DNA of 64,000 nucleotides from Thermoplasmata archaeon (GCA_021790425.1 JAJYEA010000001.1:67015-131014); one strand, 5' to 3'; shown: positions 12,601 through 55,958, counted from the first letter of the stretch. Notes: a model not told the origin generated them from the letters alone. Program-made: numbers and translations.

Positions 12601-14114
12601 CCCACTCCGACGCCGTAGGGGCTGTCCGCCGGCGGGTCCGAGCCGGTGGAAAGGTCAAGGGAACCGCAGTCGCCGCTCGCCGAGAGGTAGCTCTGGCCCT
12701 GGGCGGCCGCCGTCGTCCAGTAGCTCGTCGTGTACGAGGCACCCCAGCTGTTGGAGGTGATGTACACGCCGTTCGAGAGGGTGTTCCAAGTCCCGTCTCC
12801 CTCGTCGATCGCGCTGTTCGACAGGTCGACCTCGAGGGTGGCGTTGGGAGCCATCGAATGGGCCCACTCGATGTCGAGCATCGTCTCGCCCGCCCATCCC
12901 GACGAGCCGGAAGTGCACTTCGCAGCCGTGTTCCCACTGCCGATCAGCTGGAGGGTGCTGGTAGTGAACTGCGGCAGTCCCATCCAGAGGGAGAAGCGGT
13001 TCGCGTCCGCAAGGTAGCTCGTGTAGCTCGGGTCGCACATCTCGTCGAGGCCGATCTTGGTCCCCGCGCCCGTGTGGCCCATGGCGTAGAGGGGAAGGAT
13101 GTCGTAGAAGGTCTGGAGCGTCCGAGGCGAGATCCCGGGGAAGACCCCGACCGTGTAGGTGACGGAGTTCCCGCCGGAGTCGTTCACGAAGACGGTGATG
13201 TTCCAGCAGGCGGCGCTGTTGCAGTAGTCTGCCTGGGCCGGGTTGTAGTACATGTGGAGGGCCTTCAACTGGGCGGCGCTGGTCGTGAAGTGGTTGATCG
13301 TTCCGTCACCCCAGTGCCAGCTGACGGAGTAGGGGGCGGTCCCGCCCGTGATGTTGAGCTGGTAGGAGCCGTTGTAGTTGGTGGGCGGGTTCACAAAGGT
13401 CCCGGTCCCGGCATAGATGAAGAACGGACCGTTCATGCTCATGTTGAGCGTGATCGTGGCCGCGGGGTTGGCCGCCACGGGGGACCCCGCCAGGGGGCTC
13501 CACTGCAGGAGGTTCTGAGGGACCGGGGGGTTCACGGTCTGGAACCCTCCGTCGATCTTGACGAGGGAGGCGAGCGAACTGGGAAGCTGGAGGGGGGTGG
13601 CGGGGTAGTACCCGACGTGACCCGGCGCGCGGGCGGTCACGTAGGTGGTGCCGAAGGCGGCGTCCATGGCGGACGCGGGCCCTTGCACGTTCCACATGAG
13701 CGGGCCGACCGGGCTGACCTGCACACCCTGGCTGGTCAGGTAGCTCTCTAGGGAGGCCTGGGCCTGGGGAGACGGGCCGAAGAGTTCGTTGAACTGGTTT
13801 CCGGTGAGGAACTGATGATACAGGGGGGAAGACGGATCGTACAGGTCCTGGATGAGTTGGGCTTGTCCCTGGGGGTCATGGGTCTGGAACGTCAGCGACC
13901 CCACGACCATGTGGTCCGGGGCGAGGGGCGATCCGAGTGCGAGGTCCGCCGGCCGCACCATGGGCCCTGCCAACGGGACCAGGCTTCCCACAGACGGCGC
14001 CGGTGCGGATGCGACGGTGGCCCCCGCGGCCACGGCCCCTGGAGAGAAGGCCATGAGCATCGCGATGCCGAAGATCAACACTAGGTTCCACTTCACCATG
14101 CCAGACGCCGACAT
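9660..14114 (-). CDS. membrane-anchored surface protease: signal peptide, pro-kumamolisin-like propeptide, sedolisin (S53) catalytic domain, PKD domain, 7 x ~94-aa two-Cys Ig-like repeats, C-terminal TM
   Basis: S53 motifs GWAGETMLDIEW (Glu/Asp) and SAGTSLATPASAAM (SGTS Ser). PKD signature YAWTFGDGGT...THAY. Repeats of the form GPTISAFTASP..GGTTYLNVTATGGVGPLTYAYTGQPGTCPS..LVCSTT..TVTVTVSDSAS. C-terminal helix LIGAVIVGTVVAVVVL plus RKPKR. ATG at 14114 (MSASGMVKWNLVLIFGIAMLMA signal peptide), with TATA-like ccttaaatcc ~30 nt upstream. The track's start at 14216 is a 5' extension. Confidence 0.8.
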   Translation of the reverse strand: MSASGMVKWNLVLIFGIAMLMAFSPGAVAAGATVASAPAPSVGSLVPLAGPMVRPADLALGSPLAPDHMVVGSLTFQTHDPQGQAQLIQDLYDPSSPLYHQFLTGNQFNELFGPSPQAQASLESYLTSQGVQVSPVGPLMWNVQGPASAMDAAFGTTYVTARAPGHVGYYPATPLQLPSSLASLVKIDGGFQTVNPPVPQNLLQWSPLAGSPVAANPAATITLNMSMNGPFFIYAGTGTFVNPPTNYNGSYQLNITGGTAPYSVSWHWGDGTINHFTTSAAQLKALHMYYNPAQADYCNSAACWNITVFVNDSGGNSVTYTVGVFPGISPRTLQTFYDILPLYAMGHTGAGTKIGLDEMCDPSYTSYLADANRFSLWMGLPQFTTSTLQLIGSGNTAAKCTSGSSGWAGETMLDIEWAHSMAPNATLEVDLSNSAIDEGDGTWNTLSNGVYITSNSWGASYTTSYWTTAAAQGQSYLSASGDCGSLDLSTGSDPPADSPYGVGVGGTQVYPLPSGGFRAEFAWNGTNDPTCTSTGANDAGSGGGYSKTIAAPAYQTGMTGFSNTHRGIPDIAAIGGTWVVLYDSSFSTKFSLSAGTSLATPASAAMLDIMYQYNGTATKANGMADYDLYAIAKTSNYHIGFHDIVVGNNKVSGSGYTTTPGWDAVTGLGSFNVSQLAQLVAAQNANPSPTATLTAILSANVTFGPASLGVGFSADVAGGPASLTGYSYAWTFGDGGTATTSTYYTTHAYTTPGIYQATVTVTGGSSTATSNSVTVHVTGTAVSGPTISAFTASPATIPSGGTTYLNVTATGGVGPLTYAYTGQPGTCPSVNATQLVCSTTVTSTTTYTVTVTVSDSASTPHTATKTATFTVNAPVGTGPTISAFTASPVIIPSGGTTYLNVTATGGVGPLSYAYTGQPASCPSANATQLVCSTTATATTAYTVTVTVSDSASTPHTATKTASFTVNVPGTGPVISTFTASPGTIPSGGTTYLNVSATGGVGPLTYAYTGQPGTCPSVNATQLVCSTTVTSTTTYTVTVTVSDSASTPHTATKTTTFTVNAPVGTGPTISAFTASPATIPSGGTTFLNVSASGGVGPLTYAYTGQPGTCPSVNATQLVCSTTVTTTTTYSVTVTVSDSASTPHSVTQTAAFTVSVAGLPPAPAITSFQASPATLVSGGTTTLSVGTSGGAGPLTYAYTGQPGTCPSVNATQLVCSTTVTTTTTYSVTVTVHDSASTPRSTTAQTTFTVYTVPVVSSFTASPATVSLGGTSYLNVTVSSGTSPYMYAYAQLPSGCLSANVASLKCVSTVTGAFTVTVTVTDANGYSGQGQAILTVLAAPGSPTIQSFYASPSPVTVNAQTTLYVTASGGSGALTYAYTGLPTGCASQDTDALTCTPTQTGNYTVTVTVTDTASHSASTTTVVTVVAASGSATSGSGTPDWVWWALIGAVIVGTVVAVVVLTRKPKRPEQAPPGNAPSSPPTGARTQ
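10300..11800. repeat. tandem ~285-bp near-identical coding repeats (5 copies) inside the protease gene
   Basis: A >100-bp identical stretch (cggagtaggtcgtggtggtggtgaccgtggtggagcagaccagctgggtcgcgttcacgctcgggcaggttcccggctgaccggtgtaggcgtaggtcag) recurs at ~10442, ~10727, ~11010, ~11290 and ~11570. Confidence 0.8.
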
Positions 14115-14386
14115 GCGCTGGGCCAACCTCGCAATGTCCTTAAATCCTTGCATGCCCGGGGGAGCGCCCGGCTCGCCCAGGCGACCTCTGAGAATCGAAG
14201 GCCCCGCCGTGGCCACACGGGATCGGTCGGGGCAGCGTGCGGGAAGGCTCCCTCAAAGAAAGGGACCTTGCTGGAAAAGGAAAAGCGGACACTTGCCGAG
14301 GCCGGAGCCTACGGGTGCCTCTTTCCCGGAGCCTGGCTCCGGACCAAGCGGGCCATGACCTCTTCCCCCGCGCGGCCGGCCCGCAC

Positions 14387-26206: not shown

Positions 26207-29200
26207 TTATTCGCGCTCCGAGTAGGGTGGGTGCCCTTGGTCGCGTGCGGGTGGGGGAGTGCTCTCAGCCTTCCTCCTTCGCAGAATTCCGGCGGCAACA
26301 GCGACCACTATGAACGCTACAATCGCCCCCAGCAGGACGTAGCCGAGGTATCCCGGTAGTCCCAGAAAAGTAGGGGAGCCGGTGTTGGTCCCCGGGCTGG
26401 GGGAAACCTTCGTGAAACCGATGGATCGGGTAACGTTCGCTCCCTCGACCAAGACAGCCCCCGAGGACGTGCTTGCCGAGTATCCTGGGACGGACCCCAC
26501 GCTAAAGGAATAGCCCGTAGTGTTGTTGAGCAGCTTCCCAAAGGCGATGGTCGGAGTGATCGAAGATCGGTTGGAACCATTGAGGGTCACGGACCAGGAA
26601 GTTCCAGCGAGGAGCCCCGATTCGGTGAAGGTGACAGTAAACGTAGGCGGAGTGGCAGCCGTCTTCGTAAAGGTGATGACTCGGAGCACATTGGCTCCAT
26701 CAACCACCACGGACCCGGAGGGAGGGTTGGCGGAGTAACCGAACACCGCTCCGACCGAGAAGAGGTATCCCGCAGTGTTGTTGGTCATGTTGGGGAATGC
26801 AATGCCCGATTGGACGGTGGAACTGTTCGTGCCGTTGAAAGTCACGGACCAGGGCGTCCCGGATGGCAATCCTGACCCTTGGAAGGTCACCGTATAGCTC
26901 GACGTGGAGGATGTCCTGGTGAAGGAGATGGCTTCTGTCACATTCCCACCGTTTACGGTGATGTTTCCTGACGAGGGAGTGGTGACGAAACTGGCTATGC
27001 CTCCAGCAGTAAACGGGTAGGTTCCGTTCGATTCCGTGAAGGTGATGGTCGAGGTGTTCGAACTCCCCAGACGGCCACTCAGAGTCACGTTCCAATTAGT
27101 ACCCCCTGTAAGACCCGTCTCAGTGAACGTAACACGGTACTTCGGAGCCGGGGCACCTGCCGCCACGATAGAAACCGTTCCCTGTCGCTCATTGCTGACG
27201 TAAACACAGCCGTTTGCGTCATCATATGCCGCCCCGACAGGGCCGGACCCAACGGGAAGCGCCGCTACTACGTGGTTGGTCACGTCCGAGATGACGCTCA
27301 CATTGTTCGAGTCCCAGTTTGTGACAAACATCTCATCGGTGTTGCCACCATAGGCCACCCACTGAGGGTCAGAACCCACGGGGACCGTGGTGACCACCGT
27401 GTCAGTCACGTCCGAGATGACGCTCACGTCGTTCGAGCCAGCGTTCGCGACGAACACCTCGTCTTTCCCGCTGTCGATTGCCAAAGCATCTGGGCTAACA
27501 CCAACGTTGACCCAGCCCACGATGGCGTTGCTGGTATCCGAAATTATGCTCACGTTATCCGAGTAGTAGTTTGCCACAAACACCTCTCCCCGTTGGGCGT
27601 CGTAGGCTACGCTCCAGGCGTCGAACATTCCGCCCGGAGAGATTGTAGCCACCACTTTGTTGCTCGAATCTGACACCACACTCACAAAGTTCTGTCCAGC
27701 GACGAAGATCTCGCCTTTTCCCTGGTCATAGGCCAAGCCGATGGGGTTTCCCACCCCGTGAATTGTGGCGATCACGGTGTTGTTGGTTTCCGAAATCACG
27801 CTAAGGGTCCCCGAAGCGTCGTTGGCGACAAAGACCTCGTGCTTGCCACTGTCGTAGATCAAGCCCCAGGGGTTTGGTTCGACGGGCACGGTGGCGATAG
27901 CGGTGTCGCTCGCGTCCGAGATTACACTGACGTTGTTCGAAACCGACTCCGTGAGAAAGACCTCGCCAATCCCACTGTCGTCATACGCGACCCCGAAGGG
28001 AGATACCCCCACGGTGATGGTGGCCACCACTGCGTTGCTCGCATCCGAGATCACACTTACGTTCTCTGAATTACTCTTCGTGACAAAAAGATCCCCCTTG
28101 GCACTGTCATACGCCACGCCGACGGGACTCATCCCCACGGCAACGTTGGCGACCAAAGTGTCGTTCGCGTCCGAGATCACACTTAGGGTGCCCGAGAGCC
28201 AGTTTGCTACGGCGACCTCACCCGTCCCGTTGTCGTAGGCCACTCCGTCGGGGCTGCTTCCCACGCGGATCGTAGCCACCACCGTATTGTTAGCATCCGA
28301 AATCACATCCGCGTTGGTTGAATACTCGTTTGCGACGAAAACCTCGCCCTTCCCGCCATCGTAGGCCAGACCCGCAGGTCCAGACCCCACGGCGATGGTC
28401 GCCCTCACCGTGTCGTTGTTCGCCGAGATCACACTCACATTGTCCGAGTTCGTGTTCGAAACAAAAACCTCACCCCTGGCGCTGTCATACGCAGCTCCAT
28501 CAGGGTTTGTGCCCACATTGACAGTGGCGACCACCTTGTTGCTGCTGACGGAGATCACGCTCACGTTGTTCGAGTTGTAGTTTGCGACAAAGACCTCACC
28601 CATCGCGGCATCATACGCTAGCGCGAGTGGTCCTGACCCGACGGGGACGGTCGAGACCACGGAGTTGTTCCCATCGGAAACCACGCTCACCGTGTTCGAG
28701 GCTTGGTTTGCAACGAAGATCTCACCCACCCCGCTGTCATACGCCAACGCGTAGGGGTCTGAGCCTACGGTGACATTCGCGACCAACCGGTCGCTCACGT
28801 CTGAAATCACGCCTACGGAGTTCACATTGCCTGCGACAAAGAGTTCCCCCTTCCCGCTGTCATACACTACACCCCCAGGGTCCCAGCCATTTGCAGCGAG
28901 AAAGTTGCCGGGGACCAGTGTGTTGTTGGCGAGGACCAGCGTGTCCTTCACGTACGGAAGTACGGAGGTGTGGTGGGTCGGAGACAGTCGATGTTCTACG
29001 CCTTGCGATGGGGTAGCATCAATGCTTCTCGTGGGAGACATGGCCACGGCATCCCTGACTTGACCCAACGCCGTGAGGTGGGGGGGACGAACCTGGATAG
29101 CTATCGACGGCCCCGGCAGGATTGCCAGAACGACAATCGCCGTCACAATCAACAGATTGAACGGCCTGCGCGGTGACCGTGCCACATGGCAAGGGAACGG

Positions 29201-29320
29201 TGCGTGAGGAAAACCTTGTCGCCCCCCTAACGCGTCCCCTGGTCTCGATAGTATCTGGCACTCTTCTCTGGCGAAAGATTGACCCCGACTGTCGAGAGGG
29301 AAGCCGCGTTCCATGGGCAC
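26207..29320 (-). CDS. cell-surface YVTN/NHL beta-propeller repeat protein with 3 C-terminal thermopsin-like ~100-aa repeats and a C-terminal TM anchor
   Basis: ~13 copies of a ~42-aa repeat (VANxxSNxVSVISDxxNxVVATIxVGxxPxGxAYD). Three repeats of the form YxVTFTESGLxxGTxWSVTLNG. Signal-peptide-like RRPFNLLIVTAIVVLAILPGPSIA. C-terminal helix LGAIVAFIVVAVAAGIL plus RRRK. A likely GTG start near 29184 would trim the N-terminus. Confidence 0.75.
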   Translation of the reverse strand: MPMERGFPLDSRGQSFAREECQILSRPGDALGGRQGFPHAPFPCHVARSPRRPFNLLIVTAIVVLAILPGPSIAIQVRPPHLTALGQVRDAVAMSPTRSIDATPSQGVEHRLSPTHHTSVLPYVKDTLVLANNTLVPGNFLAANGWDPGGVVYDSGKGELFVAGNVNSVGVISDVSDRLVANVTVGSDPYALAYDSGVGEIFVANQASNTVSVVSDGNNSVVSTVPVGSGPLALAYDAAMGEVFVANYNSNNVSVISVSSNKVVATVNVGTNPDGAAYDSARGEVFVSNTNSDNVSVISANNDTVRATIAVGSGPAGLAYDGGKGEVFVANEYSTNADVISDANNTVVATIRVGSSPDGVAYDNGTGEVAVANWLSGTLSVISDANDTLVANVAVGMSPVGVAYDSAKGDLFVTKSNSENVSVISDASNAVVATITVGVSPFGVAYDDSGIGEVFLTESVSNNVSVISDASDTAIATVPVEPNPWGLIYDSGKHEVFVANDASGTLSVISETNNTVIATIHGVGNPIGLAYDQGKGEIFVAGQNFVSVVSDSSNKVVATISPGGMFDAWSVAYDAQRGEVFVANYYSDNVSIISDTSNAIVGWVNVGVSPDALAIDSGKDEVFVANAGSNDVSVISDVTDTVVTTVPVGSDPQWVAYGGNTDEMFVTNWDSNNVSVISDVTNHVVAALPVGSGPVGAAYDDANGCVYVSNERQGTVSIVAAGAPAPKYRVTFTETGLTGGTNWNVTLSGRLGSSNTSTITFTESNGTYPFTAGGIASFVTTPSSGNITVNGGNVTEAISFTRTSSTSSYTVTFQGSGLPSGTPWSVTFNGTNSSTVQSGIAFPNMTNNTAGYLFSVGAVFGYSANPPSGSVVVDGANVLRVITFTKTAATPPTFTVTFTESGLLAGTSWSVTLNGSNRSSITPTIAFGKLLNNTTGYSFSVGSVPGYSASTSSGAVLVEGANVTRSIGFTKVSPSPGTNTGSPTFLGLPGYLGYVLLGAIVAFIVVAVAAGILRRRKAESTPPPARDQGHPPYSERE

Positions 29321-45917: not shown

Positions 45918-47303
45918 TCAGGAGCCGTGGTACATCCAGTCGATGACCGAGGAAAGGAACTCTTCCACCGCGTCCGCGGGCATCGTCTCTGCCATCCCGT
46001 AGATCGGGGCCAGCCCCGCCGCCGCGGGCGCCCGCTCGGCCATGCGGACGGCCCAGCGGAGGTCCGTCAGGAACCGGGCGGACACCCCGGGGAGCGTGTG
46101 CCGGAGCGTGACGGCCAGATGGACCCCCGGAGGGTTCTGTAGCCCGTTGAGGAACCATCCCCGGCGCGACATCTGCTCCATGACCTGGTAGACGTCCATC
46201 CGCGGGGTCGTGAACGCCGCCACGATGGCGGAGTCCCCCATCAGCTCGACCCCCGGGATCTTCGCCGCCCCGGTGCGGATGCGTCGCGTCGTGGCCAGTA
46301 TCTTGCGGGCGATGGAACGGTAGCCATCGGCGCCGAGGGAAAGCATGGTCGCCCATGCCGCGGCCACGAGCCCGCCGGGGCGGCTCCCCGCGAGGGAGGT
46401 GGAGAAGTAGATGCCGCCGGGCCAACGGTTGGCCACGTAGTACTGCTTCCGGAGAAGGTCGGGATCGGAGTAGAGTATCGTGGAGATCCCCTTGGGCACG
46501 AAGCCGTACTTGTGAGGGTCGACCGAGATGGAGGTCACCCCGGGGAGCCGGAAATCGAAGTCCGGCACCGCGACGCCCAGCTCCCGCGCCCAGGGAAGGA
46601 TGAATCCGCCCAGGCAGGCATCGGTGTGGAACCCCACCCCCTGGTCGTGCGCCACCTCGGACATCGCCCGGATGGGGTCGACCACGCCGTACGGAAAGCA
46701 CGGGGCGGACCCGACGACCGCGACGGTGCGGGGTCCGATGGCCGACTTCACCGACTCCATGTCGGCCGCAAGGTCGGCACCGACGGGCACGGTCTTGGCC
46801 CGGATGCCGAAGTAGTGGCAGGCCTTGTCGAAGGCCACGTGGGCCGTGACCGGGAGCACCACCTCGGGCTCGGTGATCCCACGCTTCTCCCGTCCCCAGT
46901 CCCGGTAGGCCTTCATCGCGAGCAGGATGCTCTCCGTGCCGCCGGAGCTCACCGCGCCGCGGACGGAGTCGCCGCCACCGAGGAGGGCCGAGGTCATCGC
47001 GACGATTTCACCTTCCATCTTCACGAGGCTCGGCCAGACATCGGGATGGAGGGGGTTCGTCTGGGACGCGAGCGCGTAGGCCTGCGTCGCGAACCGCGTG
47101 TGGGCGGGTTCCCCATGATAGACCGCGCCTGACACGTACCCCTTCTTCCACCGCCCCTCCTCTTCGCGGAGGAGCCGGGTGAGGAGCGCGAGCACCTCCC
47201 GCTGGTTCGCACCGCGCGCGGGGAGTTTCCGGATCGGGGGGAATGTCTGGTCGTAGGGGCGGAAACGCTCCTGGACCACCGAGAGAAGTTCCTCCAGATC
47301 CAT
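45918..47303 (-). CDS. PLP-dependent group II decarboxylase-fold enzyme, sphingosine-1-phosphate-lyase-like
   Basis: PLP-Lys motif SISVDPHKYGFVPKGISTILYSD resembles SPL-family SISADTHKYGYAPKG. GYVSGAVYHGE also present. ~460 aa. ATG at 47303 (MDLEELL) or 47327. Confidence 0.75.
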   Translation of the reverse strand: MDLEELLSVVQERFRPYDQTFPPIRKLPARGANQREVLALLTRLLREEEGRWKKGYVSGAVYHGEPAHTRFATQAYALASQTNPLHPDVWPSLVKMEGEIVAMTSALLGGGDSVRGAVSSGGTESILLAMKAYRDWGREKRGITEPEVVLPVTAHVAFDKACHYFGIRAKTVPVGADLAADMESVKSAIGPRTVAVVGSAPCFPYGVVDPIRAMSEVAHDQGVGFHTDACLGGFILPWARELGVAVPDFDFRLPGVTSISVDPHKYGFVPKGISTILYSDPDLLRKQYYVANRWPGGIYFSTSLAGSRPGGLVAAAWATMLSLGADGYRSIARKILATTRRIRTGAAKIPGVELMGDSAIVAAFTTPRMDVYQVMEQMSRRGWFLNGLQNPPGVHLAVTLRHTLPGVSARFLTDLRWAVRMAERAPAAAGLAPIYGMAETMPADAVEEFLSSVIDWMYHGS

Positions 47304-47319
47304 CGCTGCTGGCGAGCCG

Positions 47320-47332
47320 GAATTCATATAGA
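47320..47332. promoter_or_regulatory. shared TATA (ttcatatagaacc) between divergent decarboxylase and MFS genes
   Basis: ~25 nt from ATG 47303 (minus strand) and ~27 nt from GTG 47355 (plus strand). Confidence 0.4.
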
Positions 47333-47354
47333 ACCATTGCGCTCTCGTAGCTTT

Positions 47355-48539
47355 GTGGGGGAGTCCGGACCGAAGGGAAAGCCCGACGCCTACCGGTGGG
47401 TGGTCCTCTCCGCCTTCATGGGCCCGAGCATCGTCGCCCAGATGCTCTGGATCACCTTCGCAGCGCTACCCACCTGCTCCACGGCGGTGCTCTGCCCCAC
47501 CGGAGCCAACGAGACCTGGCTCACCGCGATCTACCCGTTCGTCTTCTTCGTCATCTCGATCCCGGTGGGCTACCTGGTCGACCTCCGGGGCTTCCGGAGC
47601 CCGGTCATCGTGGGAGCGGCGCTCCTCGCCGCCTCCGGGCTCCTGCGCCCCTTCGCTCCCACGTTCCCGCTCCTGCTCGCCGTGCAGGGAGTGGGGGCGG
47701 TCGGTCAGCCCTTCATCCTGAACAGCATCTCCAAGCTCGTCCGGGGGTGGTTCCCGGCGTCCGAGGTCGCCACCGCGACGGGAGTCGGGACCCTTTCCAT
47801 CTTCATCGGGATCGCCCTGGGACTGGGTCTCACCCCCGTGCTCGCCGAGGGGTGGGGCATCCCAGCGATGTTCGAACTGTACGGCGTGATCGCCCTCCTG
47901 GCCTTCCTCCTCTTCGCCGCGGTCGCGCGGGACCCGCCGGGGGCCCGGCCCCGCGAAGCGCCCCCAACGCTGCGCGCGATCGTGGGGATGCTCCGGGTGC
48001 GCAACATCGTCCTGCTCTCGGCCCTCTTCTTCGCGGGGATCGGGATCTTCAACTCGTTCGCCACGTACGTCGAGCCGATGCTGGAGGCGCGGTCGGTGCC
48101 CCTCGACCTCGCCGGGATCCTGGGCGGCGGGATGATCCTGGGAGGGATCGTCGGCGCCGTGGTGCTCAGCGTGGTCTCGGACCGTTACCACACGCTCCGT
48201 ACCCCCCTGCTGGCCGCGCTCGGGGTCTCCGCCATCCTGTGGGCGCTCCTGGGGATCGTGAGCGGGACGGTTCCGGAACTCCTGGTGCTCATCGCGGTAG
48301 GATTCTGCTTCATGGCGACACTCCCGCTCGGGCTCGAGCTCGCGGCCCGGAGCGTGCCCCCCTCCTCCGAGGGGGCCGCGAATGCCCTCGTGTGGGAGTT
48401 CTCCCAGATCGGAGGGACCGTCCTCATCTTCGTCTTTGAAGGGGTCGGCCAGGGGTTCGGCTGGACGCCCACGTTCTTCCTGGCCGCCGTGATGGTGGCG
48501 GTCATGTTGGTGCTCGGGCTCGCGACCGTCGACAAGTAG
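47355..48539 (+). CDS. MFS-family transporter
   Basis: 12 TM helices. Probable leaderless GTG start at 47355; alternative ATG at 47418. Confidence 0.75.
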   Translation: MGESGPKGKPDAYRWVVLSAFMGPSIVAQMLWITFAALPTCSTAVLCPTGANETWLTAIYPFVFFVISIPVGYLVDLRGFRSPVIVGAALLAASGLLRPFAPTFPLLLAVQGVGAVGQPFILNSISKLVRGWFPASEVATATGVGTLSIFIGIALGLGLTPVLAEGWGIPAMFELYGVIALLAFLLFAAVARDPPGARPREAPPTLRAIVGMLRVRNIVLLSALFFAGIGIFNSFATYVEPMLEARSVPLDLAGILGGGMILGGIVGAVVLSVVSDRYHTLRTPLLAALGVSAILWALLGIVSGTVPELLVLIAVGFCFMATLPLGLELAARSVPPSSEGAANALVWEFSQIGGTVLIFVFEGVGQGFGWTPTFFLAAVMVAVMLVLGLATVDK

Positions 48540-48609: not shown

Positions 48610-51558
48610 TTGTCTTGGCATGTACCGCTGCCGCGGGGGAAGAAGACTGAGTCGAACGTGTGGACCATCGGACTGGCCTTGGTGTTGCTCGCCTCACCCA
48701 TGGCCATCCTCGCCCATGCCCAACCTGCCCCGTCCTCCTCTCAGGCAAGAGGGGTGACGGCTGCCGGTTCGGCCGGGCGGGTCTCTGCGGCTCCGAACGG
48801 CGCTTCCCCGCGGGCCCCCGCGGCCACCCTGAGCGGCATCGATGTCTCGGGCTACCAGGGCGCGAGCATCAACTGGGCCTCGGTCAAGTCGGCCGGGAAC
48901 AGCTTCGCCTTCGCCCGCGCGGTCGAGTACTACGGTGTCTCGGACACGGATTTCGCCACGAACATGGCGAACGGCAAGGCGGCCGGAGTCTACATGGGCG
49001 CCTACGACTTCGTCTACCCGTCCAGCGAGTCGTCGACCTCCGACGCCGACTATTTCAACAGCATCATCAAGCCCTATGTCGCGTCGGGATACATGTACCC
49101 CGCGCTCGACCTAGAAAAGGACTGCTCCGCCTCCGGGGGAACGATGAGCGCATCCCAGATCACCACATGGGTGAACGGCTGGGGAACGGAGCTCGAGGCC
49201 GACCTCGCGACGGACGGCTTCCCGGGCGTCCACCCGATCGTCTACATGAACTCGAACTACGCCAACAACTGCATCGTGGCCTCCTCGTGGGGGGGCTGGA
49301 GCCTGTGGATCGCCGAGTACTACAACACGTGCGCCACCTCCCCGGCACCGAACACCGGGGTGTTCAGCACCTACGCTTTCTGGCAATGGTGCAGCACGGG
49401 AAGCTCCGGCGGGATCAGCCCCGTTGACCAGGACGTGTTCAACGGGGGCCTCTCCCAGCTCCAGGGCGGGTATCTCTTCGGCCTCTCCGTCTCCTACGCG
49501 ATGAAGGACCTGACGACCAATACGGTCCTCTACTGCGGTGGGTCTTTCCTGACCGGGGACAATATCCAGTTCACGGGCTCCGCCACCGGAGGGAGCGGCA
49601 CGTACACCTACGCCTGGAAGTTCGGGGACGGGTCGACGGGATCGGGGAACCCCGCCACCCACGTCTATTCGGCCACCGGGACGGTCGACCCCATGCTGAC
49701 CGTGACGGATTCGAACGGTGCGTCGGCGACCACCGGGAGCGGATGTTCGTTCACCGTGAACGCAGGGCTGTCGGTCTCCACCCCGCTTTCTGCCTCGCCG
49801 AACCCCGTCGTGATCTACAACTCCACCACCTTCACGGTCACCGCGTCGGGGGGAACCAGCCCCTATTCGTACTCCTATTCGGGACTCCCGGGTGGGTGCA
49901 TCTCGGGCAGCACCAACAGCCTGGGATGCACCCCTTCGGTCGCGGGCGCCTTTCCCGTGAAAGTCACTGTCACCGACGCCGCCGGACGTACTGCGACCTC
50001 CTCCACCACGCTCACCGTGACCGCGCCCGCACTGGTGGCGGGACCCCTGACGGCCACCCCTGCGACCATCGTGCTCAACGGCACCACGAACCTCTCGATC
50101 ACCGTCTCCGGAGGGGTTCCGCCGTATTCGTATGCCTACTCGGGTCTCCCTTCGGGATGTGCCTCCTCGAACGTCTCGCTCCTGGCGTGCACCCCGACCC
50201 AGACGGGAACGTTCACGGTATCCGTGACGGTGAGCGACCGGGCGGCGCAGACCCAGCAGGCGAACACCACGTTGACCGTGGTGGCCTCCGCGCTCATCGT
50301 TGGACCGCTCGTGGCCAGTCCGCCCACCGTGGCCGCCAACACCACCACGAACTTGTCGGTCCTGGCCTCCGGAGGGGTTCCTCCCTACACGTACGTCTAC
50401 GCCGGCCTGCCCCCCGGGTGCCTCTCGTCCAATGCCTCGTCCGTCCCCTGCCAGCCCACGGTACCCGGCACGTTCAATGTCTCGGTGACCGTGAGCGACC
50501 GGAGCGGGCAGACGCAGACCGCGAACACCACGGTGATCGTCACCCCCGATGCGCTCGCGATCACCTCGTTCGCGGCAACGCCTTCCCGGATCCTCCTCGG
50601 CAACAACACCACCCTCGCGGGCGCTACCTCGGGAGGGATCGGGCCTTACACGTATGTCTACGGAGGGCTCCCGAACGGATGCTCCTCGGTCAACGCGACC
50701 CTTCTGCTCTGCACACCGGTGGCGTTCGGATCGTTCAATGTCACCTGGACGGTGACGGATGGGCAAGGGGCGTCCCAAGAGGCCTGGACGATCCTGACGG
50801 TGACGGAGGGGGTGGTCGTCACGGGATTCAGTATCCAGCCGTCCCCCCTCGCCTATGGGAACGTCACCCAGCTCCGGGTAACGGTCCAGAACGGGACGCC
50901 GCCCTATGCGTACGCCTACAGGGGACTGCCCACCGGATGTACCTCCAAGGACGCCTCCAACTTCAGCTGCACGCCTTTGGAGCTCGGCACCTTCAACGTG
51001 ACCGTCGTGGTCCAGGACGCGAACCATCTCGAGGGGGTGGGCACCGCTCGGCTGGTCGTCGTCGGGGCGCTCGTGCTCACGGGCTTTGTGGCGTCGCCCG
51101 CGGTCGTGACCCTCGGGAACAGCTCCACCCTCACCGTGACGGTCGCGGGAGGGGCTCCGCCGTACTCCTACACCTACTCGGGCCTGCCGGAGGGATGCGC
51201 GACCGAGAGCACCGGCACGCTACCCTGCAAGCCCACGGTCACGGGGAACTTCTCGATCATCGTCTCCGTGGCGGACACCTCGGGATCCGACGCGCACCGT
51301 TCCCTGGTGCTCCAGGTCGTCTCGCCGCCCCCCCCGACCCACACGACCTCCCCTACGAGCGGGCTCCCGGGGGGCCTCCCGATCGCCACCCTTGCCCTCC
51401 TCGGGGTTCTCGTTGCAACGCTCGTGGTGGGAGCGATACTCATCGTGCACCGTCGCCGGAAGAGGTCCGAGGCCCCCCCGCCCGCTTGGACCCCGGCGGA
51501 GGCACCGGCGGGGGTGGAGGGCGCCCCGATGACCGGCAGCGATTTCCCTCCCCCGTAG
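48610..51558 (+). CDS. membrane-anchored surface protein: signal peptide, GH25 muramidase (lysozyme) domain, PKD domain, 6 x ~90-aa two-Cys Ig-like repeats, C-terminal TM
   Basis: GH25 consensus GIDVSGYQGASINWASVKSAGNSFAFARAVEYYGVSDTDFATNMANGKAAGVYMGAYDFVYP. PKD signature YAWKFGDGSTGSG..THVY. Repeats of the form ..SGG.PPYSY.YSGLP.GC.S.N.S...CTP...G.F.V.VTV.D. C-terminal helix LLGVLVATLVVGAILIV plus HRRRKR. TTG start with a signal-peptide-like N-terminus; alternative GTG at 48658. Confidence 0.8.
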   Translation: MSWHVPLPRGKKTESNVWTIGLALVLLASPMAILAHAQPAPSSSQARGVTAAGSAGRVSAAPNGASPRAPAATLSGIDVSGYQGASINWASVKSAGNSFAFARAVEYYGVSDTDFATNMANGKAAGVYMGAYDFVYPSSESSTSDADYFNSIIKPYVASGYMYPALDLEKDCSASGGTMSASQITTWVNGWGTELEADLATDGFPGVHPIVYMNSNYANNCIVASSWGGWSLWIAEYYNTCATSPAPNTGVFSTYAFWQWCSTGSSGGISPVDQDVFNGGLSQLQGGYLFGLSVSYAMKDLTTNTVLYCGGSFLTGDNIQFTGSATGGSGTYTYAWKFGDGSTGSGNPATHVYSATGTVDPMLTVTDSNGASATTGSGCSFTVNAGLSVSTPLSASPNPVVIYNSTTFTVTASGGTSPYSYSYSGLPGGCISGSTNSLGCTPSVAGAFPVKVTVTDAAGRTATSSTTLTVTAPALVAGPLTATPATIVLNGTTNLSITVSGGVPPYSYAYSGLPSGCASSNVSLLACTPTQTGTFTVSVTVSDRAAQTQQANTTLTVVASALIVGPLVASPPTVAANTTTNLSVLASGGVPPYTYVYAGLPPGCLSSNASSVPCQPTVPGTFNVSVTVSDRSGQTQTANTTVIVTPDALAITSFAATPSRILLGNNTTLAGATSGGIGPYTYVYGGLPNGCSSVNATLLLCTPVAFGSFNVTWTVTDGQGASQEAWTILTVTEGVVVTGFSIQPSPLAYGNVTQLRVTVQNGTPPYAYAYRGLPTGCTSKDASNFSCTPLELGTFNVTVVVQDANHLEGVGTARLVVVGALVLTGFVASPAVVTLGNSSTLTVTVAGGAPPYSYTYSGLPEGCATESTGTLPCKPTVTGNFSIIVSVADTSGSDAHRSLVLQVVSPPPPTHTTSPTSGLPGGLPIATLALLGVLVATLVVGAILIVHRRRKRSEAPPPAWTPAEAPAGVEGAPMTGSDFPPP

Positions 51559-51710
51559 CCCCGAGGCGGGAAGGCACAAGGGTCCCCCGGGTCGATTGCG
51601 GTCTCGACCGTCCGTCGAAGGGTCCCCGCGGAGGTAACCCGGAGTGAGCGCTGAGGGGGTGTCCGGTACCCCCTGTTCGCCAAAGGACATCTTCCGATGG
51701 GACGCCCGGC

Positions 51711-54700
51711 GTGTCCGGCGGTGGTTGCCGAGGCATAGCACGGATATCTTCATTACCCCGACGGGCTCTTGCCTCGCTCGTGCGCTGGACCCGACCCACG
51801 CTGGCGTTGGTGCTCACGGCGATCTTGGTGGCAGGGTTCCTGGCCATCCCGGGAGCTCCCGGTGACATGGAGCACGGGGCGGCCCAGCTCTCGGCCGGGC
51901 TCCTTACGATGCTCCCAGCGTTCGAGTCCATCTACCCGGGCGCCCGAGACCTCGGAGCGGTTGCCCCGTCCACCCCGATGACGGTCGGCCTGGCCCTCTC
52001 TCCCAACGACCCCCGCGCGCTCGACGCGTACGTGTATGCCGAGTACACCCCCGGGTCCCCCGCCTACGGTCACGAGCTCAACCCGCAGAAGTTCCAGACG
52101 TACTTCTCCCCCTCCGCAGCGGACTACCGCGCGGTGCAGAGCTACTACGCGGCCTACGGGCTCTCGACGATCACGACCCCCGACCGGCTGATGATCGGCC
52201 TCACCGGGACGGCGGGTCACATTTCGAATGCCTTCCACACGAGCTTCCACCGCTTCCAGTTGACCGACGGGGCCGACGTCTACGGGGCCTCCCAATCGGT
52301 GGTGGTTCCGGCAGGGCTGTCGATCGACGGGGTCACCGGGATGACGAACGCCTGGGGTCCCCGACCGACCGATATCAACCCCGGGCAGGTCGAGGCCGCC
52401 GCGGCGGGCTGGGCCCACAGCGAGAAGACGGCCACGCCGGGAACATGGACATGCACCTCCGGCACGCAAGGGTGTGACGAGCCCGGCTACTACGGCGAGT
52501 ATCCCCTCTTCAACGCAGGGGATACCGGCCAGGGTGTCAACGTGGGGATCGTCGACGCCTACGACAGTGCCGAGACCCAGTCCCAGCTCCTGAGCTCCGA
52601 GCAGAGCTTCGCGAGCGGGGCAGGGCTGCCCGCGCCGCACGAGAACTTCTGGTACCCGATCCCGGGTGCGGGCAACCTGAACACCTCCGCGAGCAGCGGA
52701 TGGGCAGGGGAGACCGACCTCGACCAGCACATGGCCTTCATGGACGCTCCCGGGGCCAACATCGATGTCACGTTCGCTTCCGACAGCTCCTTCGCGGTCT
52801 ACGAGGCCGTGGACTTCCTGGTGGCCCACAACCTGACCCAGACCATCTCGATGTCGTGGGGCGAGTCCGATGTGGGGAACATGCAGGCGCCTCCCCAGGG
52901 TCCGTGCATGCCCTACTACAGCTGCAACGCGTCGTATGACGGCTCCTACGCCTTCCTTCACCCCGTGTTCGCGGAGGCCGTGGCCGAGGGGATCACCCCC
53001 TTCGCGGCCGCCGGGGACTGTGGCGCGGCGGACGGCACTTACACGGTCGCGACGGACTACCCTTCGAGCGACCCCTTCGTGGTGGGCGTGGGAGGCACCC
53101 AGCTGAACGGCAGCGGCTCCACCTATGCGGGGGAGACGGGATGGAGCGGCAACGGCACGGGATGCACCGCGAACACCGGGGGCGGGGGCGGAGGCTACGC
53201 GCCCTGGGCCCAGCCCTGGTGGCAGCACGGCCCGGGCCAGCTCACCCACCACCTCCGGGGAGTACCGGACGTCAGCGCGGACTCGGCGGACGGGACCAGC
53301 CAGGCGTCCCCGATGTGGGCCGGCTGGGTCGCCGTGGCCGACCAGATCCACGGAGGGGGGCTCGGGCTCATCGGCCCCTCGATGTACAACATCCTGAGCA
53401 ACGCCACGGAATACGCGGCCGACTTCCACGACATCAAGACCGGGAACAACGGGTACGCCGCGGGCACCGGTTGGGACCCCATCACGGGGATCGGGACCCC
53501 CGTCACTGGCGCGCTCTTGCCGGCGCTGGGCCGCTACCTGCCGCCCGTCCACGGGTCCTTGAACGTCTCCCTCGCGGCCACGCCGACCTCGGGCTCCGCG
53601 CCCCTGTCCGTCACGTTCACCGCCTCTGCGAGCGGAGGCACCCCTCCCTACTGGTACGACTTCGTGCCCGGGCTGTACCTGGGCCAAGTCTCGAACACCC
53701 CGTCCATCACCTACCCGTACGCCTCGGCCGGACCGTACTACGCGACGGTCGTCGCGTGGGATGCCGCGGGCAACTCCTCCATCTCCAACCCGGTCCTCGT
53801 CCACGTCGGCGACTCCGCGTTGACGGCGACGCTCGCGGCCTCCGCGACCCACGTTCTGGTCGGGCAGACCGTCACCTTCACGGGAGGGGCGAGCGGCGGG
53901 ACGGCACCGTACCAGTTCACGTACTTCTACGGGGACGGCACCTACGGATACAACCGGAGCACGAGCGCGACGCACGCCTACCTCTCTCCGGGCACCTACT
54001 GCGCCTACGCCTTCGTGACGGATGGGGCGGCCACGCAGAACGGCGGTGTCACGAACCCGGTCTGCGTCACGGCGAGCTATTCCTCAGGGTCGGGTCCCAC
54101 GATCTCCTCCTTCACGGCCTCCCCTTCCACCATCACCGTCGGCGGCACGACCTACCTCAACGTCTCCGCCTCCGGCGGGACGGGACCCCTCGCCTACGCC
54201 TACTCCGGCCTTCCCGCCCCCTGCGCGAGCTCCAACTCCAGCGCCATCACGTGCACCCCTTCCGCCGTGGGCGGTCCCTACTCCATCACGGTGACCGTCA
54301 GCGACAGTGCCTCTCCCCGTCACACCACCAGCGCCACGACCTCCTTCACGGTCACCTCGACCGGAGGCACGGGACCGACCATCTCCACCTTCACCGCGAG
54401 CCCCTCCTCCATCCCCGCGGGGGGCACGACCTACCTCAACGTCACCGCCTCGGGAGGCGTCGGCCCGCTGACCTACGCCTACTCCGGCCTTCCCACTCCC
54501 TGCGCGAGCTCCAACTCGAGCTCGATCACCTGCGCCCCCGCTTCCTCGGGAGGGCCGTACACCATCACCGCGACGGTCTCCGACTCGGCCCCGTCTCCCC
54601 ACTCCACCTCTGCCACCACCTCCTTCACCGTCACCCCGAGTGGAGGGACGGGACCGACCATCTCCTCCTTCACCGCGAGCCCGGCCTCTATCCCCGCGGG

Positions 54701-55958
54701 GGGCACCACCTACCTCAACGTCACCGCCTCGGGAGGCGTCGGACCCCTGAGCTACGCTTACTCCGGGCTCCCCGCTCCCTGCGCGAGCTCCAACTCCAGT
54801 TCGATCACCTGCGCCCCCACCTCCTCGGGCGGTCCGTACACCATCACCGTGACGGTCAAGGATTCGGCCTCGACTCCCCGCTCCACCTCTGCCACCACCT
54901 CCTTCACCGTCACCCCGAGCGGAGGGACGGGACCGACCATCTCCTCCTTCACCGCGAGCCCCTCCTCCATCCCCGCGGGAGGGACGACCTACCTCAACGT
55001 CACCGCCTCGGGAGGCGTCGGGCCCCTGAGCTACTCGTACTCCGGACTTCCCGCCCCCTGCACCAGCACCAATGCGAGCAGGATCACGTGCGCCCCCACC
55101 TCCTCGGGCGGTCCGTACACCATCACCGCGACGGTCAAGGATTCGGCGTCCTCGCCCCACACGACCGCCGCCACCGCCACGTTCACGGTCACCCCGGCCC
55201 CGCTCGCGATCAGCAGCCTCACCGCATCCCCCGCATCGATCCCCTCGGGAGGAACCACGTTCCTGAACGTGACCGCCACGGGGGGGTACCCCGCCTACAC
55301 CTACCTGTACAACGGCCTGCCTTCGGACTGCGCTTCCGCGAACGCGTCCACCCTGACGTGCTCCAGCATCCTGGCCGGCACCTATGATGTCACGGTCAAG
55401 GTCACCGACACCGCATCGAACTCGGCGACCCGGTCGGCCCCCTTCACCGTGCAACCGTCGGTGGCGAGCAAGCCGGTCGTGAGCCAGTTCTACGCTTCGC
55501 CCAGCCCGCTTGCCCTCGGAGGACAAACCACCTTCTACGTGTCCGCCACCGGAGGGGCTCCGCCCTACACCTACAGCTATGTGGGACTTCCCACGGGATG
55601 CTCCAGCTCGAACTCGGGATCCCTCTCGTGCACCCCGACCGGCACGGGGACGTTCAACGTCACCGTCACCGTGACGGACACCCGAGGTCAATCGGCCCTG
55701 GCGAACACCTCGGTCGTCGTCACGGCGGCACCGAGCTCGGGACCGGGGTCGACCGGGATCCTGTCGGGTTGGTCGCTCTGGATCCTGCTCGCGGTCGTCG
55801 TGGTCGCGGTGGTCATCGCCGCCGTCCTCGTTTCACGCCGACGCAAGGGACCCGGGAACGCCACCCCTCCCGGGTATCTGCCCCCGGGAGCGACCTCCGC
55901 GAGCCCGCCCTGGCAGGCGCCTCCGGGGGCTCCTCCGCCAGCCCCCTGGCAGGAGTAG
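51711..55958 (+). CDS. membrane-anchored surface protease: pro-kumamolisin-like propeptide, sedolisin (S53) domain, PKD domain, 6 x ~93-aa two-Cys Ig-like repeats, C-terminal TM
   Basis: GWAGETDLDQHMAF and GTSQASPMWAG S53 motifs. PKD signature YFYGDGTYGYN..THAY. Repeats of the form GPTISSFTASP..GGTTYLNVTASGGVGPLSYAYSGLPAPCASSNSS.ITCAP. C-terminal helix LWILLAVVVVAVVIAAVLV plus SRRRK. GTG at 51711; alternative GTG at 51777 (MRWTRPTLALVLTAILVAGFLAI), with an AT-rich box ~30 nt upstream. Confidence 0.8.
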   Translation: MSGGGCRGIARISSLPRRALASLVRWTRPTLALVLTAILVAGFLAIPGAPGDMEHGAAQLSAGLLTMLPAFESIYPGARDLGAVAPSTPMTVGLALSPNDPRALDAYVYAEYTPGSPAYGHELNPQKFQTYFSPSAADYRAVQSYYAAYGLSTITTPDRLMIGLTGTAGHISNAFHTSFHRFQLTDGADVYGASQSVVVPAGLSIDGVTGMTNAWGPRPTDINPGQVEAAAAGWAHSEKTATPGTWTCTSGTQGCDEPGYYGEYPLFNAGDTGQGVNVGIVDAYDSAETQSQLLSSEQSFASGAGLPAPHENFWYPIPGAGNLNTSASSGWAGETDLDQHMAFMDAPGANIDVTFASDSSFAVYEAVDFLVAHNLTQTISMSWGESDVGNMQAPPQGPCMPYYSCNASYDGSYAFLHPVFAEAVAEGITPFAAAGDCGAADGTYTVATDYPSSDPFVVGVGGTQLNGSGSTYAGETGWSGNGTGCTANTGGGGGGYAPWAQPWWQHGPGQLTHHLRGVPDVSADSADGTSQASPMWAGWVAVADQIHGGGLGLIGPSMYNILSNATEYAADFHDIKTGNNGYAAGTGWDPITGIGTPVTGALLPALGRYLPPVHGSLNVSLAATPTSGSAPLSVTFTASASGGTPPYWYDFVPGLYLGQVSNTPSITYPYASAGPYYATVVAWDAAGNSSISNPVLVHVGDSALTATLAASATHVLVGQTVTFTGGASGGTAPYQFTYFYGDGTYGYNRSTSATHAYLSPGTYCAYAFVTDGAATQNGGVTNPVCVTASYSSGSGPTISSFTASPSTITVGGTTYLNVSASGGTGPLAYAYSGLPAPCASSNSSAITCTPSAVGGPYSITVTVSDSASPRHTTSATTSFTVTSTGGTGPTISTFTASPSSIPAGGTTYLNVTASGGVGPLTYAYSGLPTPCASSNSSSITCAPASSGGPYTITATVSDSAPSPHSTSATTSFTVTPSGGTGPTISSFTASPASIPAGGTTYLNVTASGGVGPLSYAYSGLPAPCASSNSSSITCAPTSSGGPYTITVTVKDSASTPRSTSATTSFTVTPSGGTGPTISSFTASPSSIPAGGTTYLNVTASGGVGPLSYSYSGLPAPCTSTNASRITCAPTSSGGPYTITATVKDSASSPHTTAATATFTVTPAPLAISSLTASPASIPSGGTTFLNVTATGGYPAYTYLYNGLPSDCASANASTLTCSSILAGTYDVTVKVTDTASNSATRSAPFTVQPSVASKPVVSQFYASPSPLALGGQTTFYVSATGGAPPYTYSYVGLPTGCSSSNSGSLSCTPTGTGTFNVTVTVTDTRGQSALANTSVVVTAAPSSGPGSTGILSGWSLWILLAVVVVAVVIAAVLVSRRRKGPGNATPPGYLPPGATSASPPWQAPPGAPPPAPWQE
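54080..55200. repeat. tandem 279-bp near-identical coding repeats (4 copies) in the second S53 gene
   Basis: gggacgggaccgaccatctcc(t/a)ccttcaccgcgagccc recurs at ~54377, ~54656 and ~54935. Confidence 0.75.

Follow-up and report, generated by a model that had tools for sequence, protein, structure and literature searches.

A PKD-derived repeat stalk and transmembrane anchor shared by a GH25 head, S53 heads and many other predicted surface-protein heads of uncultured soil Thermoplasmata

In a 64,000-nucleotide stretch of DNA from a Thermoplasmata archaeon (GCA_021790425.1 JAJYEA010000001.1:67015-131014; hereafter the window), three genes, which we call A, B and C, encode large proteins that carry different catalytic heads on one and the same repeat stalk and C-terminal anchor. 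A is headed by a glycoside hydrolase family 25 (GH25) domain and B and C by S53 (sedolisin) domains. We consider it likely that all three are type-I membrane-anchored cell-surface exoenzymes, stalked as a sequence-only reading of the window had proposed, and that they belong to uncultured, high-GC soil Thermoplasmata of the Lutacidiplasmatales or a group near them. Moreover, to judge from the sequences, the stalk and anchor form a scaffold truly common to unrelated heads, both in this genome and across the lineage.

Genes A (48610–51558, plus strand; open reading frame (ORF) of 982 amino acids), B (51711–55958, plus strand; ORF of 1415 amino acids) and C (9660–14216, minus strand) share the following layout: a predicted signal peptide, the head, one or more PKD domains, six, six and seven copies, respectively, of a repeat with two cysteines (two-Cys repeat), a transmembrane helix, and a basic and proline-rich tail. 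ORFs, Pfam matches and catalytic residues agree with the sequence-only reading, which had placed one GH25 and two S53 heads on a single architecture at these positions. The gene callers start B at GTG 51780, the probable start, which gives 1392 amino acids, and for C we accept the start read earlier, ATG 14114, as the likely one (1484 amino acids). A single PKD domain per gene had also been read; this holds for A, but B has two and C an extra PKD-like insert.

By a profile match over the whole domain and by its catalytic motifs, the head of A is a GH25 family member. Pfam Glyco_hydro_25 (PF01183) matches A at 6.7e-26, together with PKD, and scores 92.1 bits on the head against a cut-off of 27, covering profile positions 1–179 of 180. 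The catalytic domain (residues 77–268; 48838–49413) was also matched by phmmer to Cellosyl (1jfx; 3.2e-25), its catalytic Asp (GIDVS) aligning with Cellosyl D9 and its DxE motif (LDLE) with D98/E100. Both motifs are kept in P0128, the orthologue of A in the metagenome-assembled genome (MAG) YF1.bin117. A Sec signal peptide is predicted by eye at residues 1–37 (48610–48720), with a basic n-region (R, KK), then a hydrophobic core and an AHA cleavage motif (cleavage between AILAHA and QP). B and C also start with a basic stretch followed by a hydrophobic one. The head is followed by a canonical PKD domain with a WKFGDG motif (49534–49734; Pfam PKD 8.4e-21, and alignment), by six two-Cys PKD-like repeats (49774–51333; 95–110 bits each against a joint repeat profile) and by a transmembrane helix (residues 925–946) with HRRRKR and a 36-residue proline-rich tail, predicted to be cytoplasmic (51382–51555), all on the plus strand. 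The closest named relatives of this head are bacterial (Streptomyces, Actinocrinis, Limisphaerales and Chitinophagaceae, at 42% identity at most), which is consistent with its having been taken up from bacteria.

Judged by their pro-domain, Ser-Glu-Asp triad and oxyanion Asp (GExxLD, xxGDxG and GTSxAxP), B and C are members of the S53 family. The features of B all lie on the plus strand: a pro-kumamolisin activation domain (51939–52349; Pfam PF09286, 2.1e-25), the S53 catalytic domain (52512–53528; phmmer match to kumamolisin-As at 1.8e-22), two canonical PKD domains (53565–54044; Pfam and alignment), six two-Cys repeats (54099–55742; joint profile), and a transmembrane helix, RRRK and a proline-rich tail with PPGY and PPW motifs (55770–55955). 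Motif comparison places the catalytic residues at the E and D of GETDLD, the D of AAGDCG and the S of DGTSQASP, and in the alignment E78, D82, D164 and S278 of kumamolisin-As are all matched. The pro-domain reaches 90.1 bits in B and 60.4 bits in C, against a cut-off of 23.5.

The features of C, all on the minus strand, are the pro-kumamolisin activation domain (13557–13928; Pfam 3.1e-16), the S53 catalytic domain (12075–13145; GETMLD, ASGDCG and AGTSLATP; phmmer match to sedolisin 6m8w at 4.4e-11), a canonical PKD domain (11787–12026; Pfam PKD/PKD_4, ~1e-20), seven two-Cys repeats (9828–11756; joint profile), and a transmembrane helix, RKPKR and proline-rich tail (9663–9803), whose end adjoins aconitase on independent contigs. 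The head of C has an orthologue in locus L007, with 60% identity over the head. The extra PKD-like domain of C (WHWGDG; residues ~269–362, 13131–13412; seen in the sequence and the alignment, with a weak NCBIfam match at residues 287–326) sits between the pro-domain and the catalytic domain, an unusual place, and activation of the pro-enzyme would have to accommodate this insert.

The stalks contain 19 two-Cys repeats in total, each scoring 93–110 bits (E ~1e-30 to 1e-36) against the joint profile; nothing else in the window exceeded 10 bits, and no further repeats were found there. The six to seven copies per gene counted by the sequence-only reading stand, whereas its uniform period of ~93 amino acids does not, the period being 86–87 amino acids in A and 88–95 in B and C. 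The conserved core with two cysteines and N-glycosylation sequons was likewise borne out, but with a different invariant set, which consists of ten positions: P8, G26, Y32, Y34, P38, C41, C51, V65, D67 and V81. Every repeat has exactly two cysteines, and the Cys41–Cys51 pair probably forms a disulfide. Sequons recur in fixed columns, LNVT in 10 of the 19 repeats and SxNAS, between both cysteines, in 13, and A, B and C are probably N-glycosylated.

Profile comparison and structural models indicate that the stalk repeat is a lineage-specific PKD derivative, that is, a member of the PKD/He_PIG-type immunoglobulin (Ig) superfamily and not a canonical PKD domain. It had been thought to match no recognised domain, which does not hold: when repeats were scanned singly, 13 of the 19 matched Pfam PKD at E<=1 (best 5.4e-8) and 10 matched He_PIG (best 1e-5). 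Repeat B6 exceeds the gathering cut-off for PKD (PF00801/PF18911; 26.9 bits against 23.5) and, as a borderline match that overlaps the former, for He_PIG (PF05345; 25.4 bits against 24); in the other repeats the Pfam PKD match is weaker or absent. Big_13, K319L-PKD, SprB and Big_9 also matched single repeats more weakly, NCBIfam gave only sub-threshold matches (e.g., tand_rpt_95), and neither Pfam nor NCBIfam holds a model specific for the two-Cys repeat. Among Protein Data Bank (PDB) sequences, the repeat profile matched the PKD domains of KIAA0319L and the Ig domain of the phage T5 decoration protein pb10. When the repeat was compared by hhalign with the canonical PKD domains found in A, B and C themselves, the probability was 96.7% (E 3.2e-10, 79 columns). 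The repeat profile scores only 5–9 bits on these adjoining domains, and the PKD signature WxFGDG...H.Y is not present in the repeat, which has Y.GLP.GC.S.N...L.CTP with the two invariant cysteines instead.

The fold supports the same assignment. AlphaFold2 (AF2), run on the 19-repeat alignment, returned a β-sandwich of 6–7 strands with a predicted local distance difference test score (pLDDT) of 88.7. Its best PDB fold matches are the PKD domains of ColH/ColG, the cadherin-like (CDHL) modules of SraP, the PKD domain of polycystin-1 and 1L0Q, with template-modelling scores (TM-scores) of 0.62–0.67 to the ColH/ColG/polycystin PKD domains and 0.70 to 1l0q. A two-repeat model (pLDDT 93.1, predicted TM-score (pTM) 0.70, five models alike) superposes on the CDHL1-CDHL2 stem of SraP with a TM-score of 0.76 and a root-mean-square deviation of 2.9 Å over 174 columns at 25% identity. 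An Ig domain is roughly 4 nm long, so that the 7–8 Ig domains of each protein would make a stalk of ~25–35 nm. The repeat is thus a defined, compact Ig module of ~87 amino acids with a high-confidence model, and one that naturally displays many heads.

The C-termini of A, B and C are built alike: a hydrophobic helix of 22 residues follows a short linker rich in Pro, Ser and Thr and leads into RRRK or RKPKR and a proline-rich tail of 25–40 residues. Proline makes up ~23% of the tails (51448–51555, 55836–55955 and 9663–9737), in which PPxW and PPGY-like motifs recur. Cytoplasmic extensions reach 300–600 amino acids in some members of the family (P0113, P0043 and P0066 were examined), one of them having double zinc ribbons. 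The proline-rich motifs and the zinc-ribbon extensions hint at a cytoplasmic partner or a signalling role of the anchor. We found no PGF-CTERM motif at the C-termini, and no NCBIfam PGF-CTERM match was reported. With no PGF motif and with proline-rich tails of 25–40 residues beyond the transmembrane helix, the proteins do not fall into the archaeosortase-processed (PGF-CTERM) class.

Moreover, sequence divergence identifies the three genes as diverged paralogues. Repeats of one gene never exceed 84% DNA identity with one another, the figure for B against C being ~68%; at the protein level, B matches C with 41% identity across the alignment of catalytic domain, PKD and stalk. Identical copies of the A-B tandem occur on three contigs, one from ENA (MEGAHIT), one from an NCBI MAG (GCA_027340385.1) and one from Logan. 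The case that the sequence-only reading had named as fatal to itself, assembly duplication of one locus, is ruled out by the DNA and protein divergence together with these three concordant assemblies.

To assess how widely the stalk occurs, we searched the repeat profile exhaustively against 1.84 billion representative proteins; a word-index search with the same profile yielded only 7 short fragments, being swamped by low-complexity T/S words. In the exhaustive search, 30,218 library proteins reached E<=1e-3, of which 2,839 reached E<=1e-30, the weaker matches including generic PKD/Ig giants without the two-Cys motif. The top 150 matches were then sorted, retaining proteins in which four or more repeats contain P..C(7-11)C and the mean score per repeat is 45 bits or higher. 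This left 88 two-Cys proteins, most of which end in a transmembrane helix, RRR/RRK and a proline-rich tail; the remainder are very large PKD/Ig proteins of a generic type that lack the Cys pair. In addition, one genome per GTDB species was scanned with peptide patterns made from four closer repeats, patterns narrow enough that cultured Thermoplasmatales may be missed. The scan yielded 80 loci, mostly in Thermoplasmata/Thermoplasmatota MAGs, a few of them deposited as 'bacterium' or 'Methanobacteriota archaeon', and their habitats are acid soils, peat and similar (SPRUCE, Microflora Danica). The AcS/SubAcS genomes that define the Lutacidiplasmatales are among those with loci, and single genomes have up to 6–7. 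The window itself, at 67% GC, fits the Lutacidiplasmatales range of 66–70%. A search for the repeat on other heads in other genomes, as the sequence-only reading had suggested, thus shows the repeat and anchor to be common across uncultured Thermoplasmata of soil and peat, Lutacidiplasmatales among them, and the family to be essentially limited to Thermoplasmata MAGs from acid soil and peat.

The heads were clustered and then scanned against Pfam. YVTN/NHL/YncE propellers (28 among the 88 proteins, 16 in the 80 loci) and Kelch propellers (11 and 28) are the commonest, followed by thermopsin (A5; 3 and 4), S53 (3 and 3) and GH25 (2 and 1); one of the 80 loci has a GH57 head. A PF04185 phosphoesterase, a family-5 solute-binding protein (SBP5), a PQQ propeller and Big_1/CarboxypepD_reg arrays occur as single examples among the 88. 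Overall, at least 15 unrelated head classes sit on the stalk, and enzymes make up roughly 10–15% of the heads. Given that the heads are mostly propellers and the enzymes few, the stalk and anchor are the lineage's general surface-protein chassis and not a hydrolase-display system. Of the head-swap scaffold first proposed, the single stalk and anchor under different heads therefore stands, whereas its dedication to hydrolases does not. Several head classes have no Pfam match, and a relaxed Pfam scan (E<=0.5) of nine such classes returned nothing usable. Two heads without a match at this threshold have a likeness by eye: P0044 resembles an SLT/GH23 lytic transglycosylase (…AYQES…GILQ…YYN), and P0150 a clan GH-A glycosidase (…YNEEN…TEFGW). 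If the likeness of P0044 is true, the stalk would carry another head, besides GH25, that cleaves peptidoglycan.

We propose that a Sec signal peptide would export each protein and that the C-terminal transmembrane helix would then tether it, with RRRK and the proline-rich tail placed in the cytoplasm by the positive-inside rule. A rod of 7–8 tandem Ig domains (one or two canonical PKD domains and 6–7 PKD derivatives) would hold the head at its estimated distance of some tens of nanometres from the membrane, and in each derivative a GLPxGC...L.CTP loop, probably closed by the disulfide and bearing an N-glycan sequon, would take the place of WxFGDG. The Cellosyl-type GH25 head is predicted to cut bacterial peptidoglycan, of which the archaeon itself has none, while the S53 heads would be acid-active endo- or tripeptidyl-peptidases that mature through removal of the pro-domain. 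Tethering would retain enzymes and products at the producer, which would suit a cell that scavenges bacterial biomass and protein and may also lyse bacteria on contact. The peptide-scavenging life proposed for Cuniculiplasma and Lutacidiplasmatales (PMC5155288, PMC9287336) agrees with this, as does the bactericidal activity demonstrated for the GH25 enzyme of Aciduliprofundum boonei and for other archaeal peptidoglycan hydrolases (PMC4241558, PMC12352652). New heads could be joined to the chassis by recombination in near-identical repeats. If the GH25 enzyme is active and tethered, it would be a membrane-anchored bacteriolytic enzyme in archaea, extending the recent finding of archaeal peptidoglycan hydrolases, and would suggest that abundant acid-soil archaea attack bacteria on contact or harvest bacterial necromass privately.

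Some observations weigh against this reading. PKD domains of other enzymes bind substrate, so the stalk could be more than an inert spacer. B is without a β-hairpin of ~13 residues directly upstream of the catalytic Ser (VPDVSADSADGTS; ~53290–53330, plus strand, residues ~527–540), which motif comparison shows to be retained in C, in P0080 and in the L026 and L007 orthologues. The deletion is seen in all three assemblies, and its position next to the catalytic Ser means that B may be inactive or of altered specificity. Finally, the interior of the C stalk, ~1 kb at ~9855–10811, is bridged solely by the window's own assembly; the repeat number of C is therefore uncertain, and the linkage of its head to its anchor rests on that assembly. 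The ENA contig k141_1786148 is 99.7% identical to the window from 19114 as far as 10812, a point within repeat C4, beyond which it runs into the proximal stalk, transmembrane helix, tail and downstream genes of P0075, a phosphoesterase-headed protein that is intact on its own contig in the NCBI MAG. The aconitase-bearing contigs stop at 9854, still encoding the last 64 amino acids of C with the helix and tail, and the NCBI contig with A and B would, by offset arithmetic (A lies at 37071 of the 54,960-bp contig), start inside repeat C1. The two ends of C are thus independently supported, the head and repeats 1–3 to 10812 and the helix and tail up to 9854; the exact C protein of the window has no match in public assemblies. 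A comparison of L087, L088, L089 and L090 shows that at least one deposited contig is chimeric at the C/P0075 repeats, the candidates being ENA k141_1786148 and NCBI DAHWRD010000079.1, and near-identical repeats are a practical hazard in that they give chimeric MAG contigs in just these stalk genes. That the common architecture as a whole is an assembly artefact, produced by chimeric contigs at repeats or by a duplicated locus, is nonetheless very improbable: the C/P0075 fusion and the breaks of other contigs in the C repeats speak for it, but the concordance of the assemblies over A and B, a divergence too great for duplicates, the independent contigs behind each end of C and the orthologues of the same architecture in other MAGs all speak against it.

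The stalk may also be read differently. The repeats could mainly be binding or adhesion modules, for polysaccharide, peptidoglycan, cells or each other, in which case the proteins would be adhesins with heads acting on bound substrate. This we regard as unlikely, though deserving of weight, as the fold matches include collagenase PKD domains and those of two Vibrio proteases, PrtV and Epp, the commonest heads (Kelch and YVTN/NHL propellers) are typical interaction domains, and the repeat is weakly related in sequence to cadherin and He_PIG-type domains. Yet the repeat surface is poorly conserved beyond structural residues (P, G, Y, C, V and D) and the sequons, recent copies are near-identical, as expected of a spacer that sets length, and the nearest match to the tandem structure is the SraP stem, which is said to project the SraP binding head. 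It is quite improbable that the proteins are structural parts of the envelope, forming a surface-layer (S-layer) or glycocalyx lattice by contacts between stalks, with the heads as decoration. Intact catalytic sites and the S53 pro-domain favour working enzymes, and nothing suggests a lattice-forming domain, even though each genome has many paralogues, sequon density is high and the window encodes five surface proteins with a C-terminal transmembrane anchor, four with RRRK/RKPKR and a proline-rich tail and the fifth (1–2985) with YRRR and a K/E-rich tail. In Thermoplasmatales, YVTN/COG3391 proteins carry an S-layer annotation (PMC5155288), and the description of 1L0Q names an archaeal surface-layer protein, but Cuniculiplasma has such homologues and no S-layer by electron microscopy (PMC5155288). 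An equally doubtful suggestion is that the anchor is transient and the enzymes, shed by proteolysis in the Pro/Ser/Thr linker, act freely secreted. Against short Pro/Ser/Thr-rich linkers before the helix stand an anchor and proline-rich cytoplasmic tail kept across dozens of paralogue classes and the cytoplasmic extensions of 300–600 amino acids with zinc ribbons, which would be pointless on shed proteins. S53 pro-enzymes do autoprocess, which counts for shedding. The earlier genome paper also lists such enzymes simply as extracellular peptidases (PMC9287336).

Stalked, membrane-held exoenzymes thus remain the reading we favour. A far-reaching extension of it, which we offer tentatively and do not expect to hold in full, is that in soil archaea of the Lutacidiplasmatales type a conventional S-layer may have been replaced by a 'functionalised glycocalyx' of dozens of type-I glycoproteins with one disulfide-stapled, PKD-derived stalk and one anchor, heads (propellers, proteases, muramidase, amylase, phosphoesterase and solute-binding protein) being shuffled by recombination of near-identical repeats, and with tethered GH25 and acid proteases serving as a contact-dependent apparatus that lyses and digests bacteria, for predation or necromass mining.

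We then considered how such fusions arise and persist. P0128 is colinear with A repeat for repeat and 48% identical overall, its head being more conserved. The FGGY kinase, pyridoxal phosphate (PLP)-dependent decarboxylase and major facilitator superfamily (MFS) genes upstream of the GH25 gene are syntenic (window 45918–48539 versus L084/L085 1–2883). This colinearity and the partly conserved synteny indicate that the GH25-stalk fusion is old and vertically inherited. P0128 is followed by a GH57 gene (L085 10751–14590, JAKAOF010000001.1) whose product of 1279 amino acids has a signal peptide, PKD, two stalk repeats and a transmembrane/RSRSR anchor. From this architecture, it is predicted to be an extracellular tethered α-glucan hydrolase, as opposed to the storage-carbohydrate reading of GH57 in Lutacidiplasmatales. 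Since GH57 stands in the place of S53 after P0128, the adjacency of GH25 and S53 in the window is no conserved functional pair. A conserved GH25-S53 operon is rejected on the same ground and in view of a gap of 150–220 bp, with a possible TATA-like element, before B. Neighbouring stalk genes do recur: more than one stalk-repeat ORF within ±6 kb was found in 17 of the 80 loci; part of these are frameshift fragments of a single gene, and ~8 seem by inspection to be genuine adjacent pairs. The MFS importer beside a surface hydrolase recalls the MFS-thermopsin neighbourhoods of Cuniculiplasma.

The repeats themselves bear traces of recent change. Repeats B1–B4 are 72–89% identical and C1–C5 64–96% identical, so the head-proximal repeats were recently amplified, while the two membrane-proximal repeats of B and C are older and those of A have all diverged. 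P0075, encoded in the same MAG, holds a repeat that is ~95% identical by eye to C3, and shares with the ENA version of C a 519-residue C-terminal block of stalk and anchor at 91.5% identity. This common block is due either to genuine recombination of paralogous stalks or to sequence on which assembly chimeras form; in both cases it is at the repeats that heads and anchors can be joined anew.

In kind, the design is not new: the heads are ordinary GH25 and S53 domains, the stalk is a new sub-family of a well-known superfamily, and the head-on-Ig-stalk design is already established. 1L0Q, a tandem YVTN β-propeller with PKD from Methanosarcina mazei, is alike in having an N-terminal head followed by tandem PKD-type Ig domains at an archaeal surface, and the two commonest heads on the stalk described here are YVTN/NHL and Kelch propellers. 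The present proteins differ from it in their two-Cys repeats without WxFGDG, their transmembrane/RRRK/proline-rich anchor, their hydrolase heads in some cases and their Thermoplasmata lineage. SraP of Staphylococcus aureus (4M00), with an L-lectin head on two CDHL modules, likewise projects a head on an Ig-like stem, but it is a bacterial LPXTG serine-rich adhesin whose head is a lectin rather than an enzyme. The relation is one of fold, sequence support being a weak repeat-profile match to 4m03 (E 1.8e-05). In work by Yang et al. from 2014, the SraP stem was reportedly a fairly rigid rod that projects the lectin head. Lactococcal PrtP and the streptococcal C5a peptidase (Fn3) also keep a hydrolase at the producer's surface by means of a catalytic head, β-sandwich spacers and a C-terminal anchor. 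They differ in having a sortase/LPXTG wall anchor, other spacers and S8 heads, with no common ancestry of the scaffold.

As for the heads, the GH25 enzyme of Aciduliprofundum boonei (B5ID12; Metcalf et al. 2014) kills bacteria experimentally (PMC4241558), and peptidoglycan hydrolases occur in ~5% of archaeal genomes, prominently in Thermoplasmatota (Strock et al. 2025, PMC12352652). The A. boonei enzyme is likewise a lysozyme of a murein-free Thermoplasmatota archaeon, probably derived from bacteria, whereas the head of A is Cellosyl/Streptomyces-like and fused to PKD, a six-repeat stalk and a transmembrane anchor. Text searches of PMC4241558 and PMC12352652 turned up neither PKD domains nor a membrane tether. 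Lutacidiplasmatales and Cuniculiplasma typically have extracellular S53 and thermopsin peptidases (PMC9287336, PMC5155288), which are of the same families as those on the stalk, with the same presumed role in acid extracellular proteolysis for peptide scavenging (PMC5155288, PMC9287336). They are listed as secreted, in contrast to the stalk-and-anchor layout found here, and text searches of PMC5155288 and PMC9287336 gave no description of such a layout or of a shared repeat family. In the papers searched, the two-Cys repeat family, the transmembrane/proline-rich anchor and a membrane-tethered muramidase (as well as a tethered GH57, thermopsin, S53 or phosphoesterase) are undescribed. Genome annotations may be corrected accordingly: S53 and thermopsin proteins called 'secreted' are probably tethered, and the GH57 of the related MAG is predicted to be surface-bound.

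Two further surface proteins of the window are of note. A YncE/NHL β-propeller protein of 1037 amino acids (26207–29320, minus strand) has the transmembrane/RRRK/proline-rich anchor and no two-Cys repeat, indicating that the anchor module is used independently of the stalk. At the start of the window (1–2985, plus strand) lie the C-terminal 994 of the 1255 amino acids of a second protein, found at full length in L089/L090, for which there was no Pfam match. It has 59 N-x-S/T sequons and ends in a transmembrane helix, a YRRR motif and a K/E-rich tail, and may be this organism's main surface glycoprotein.

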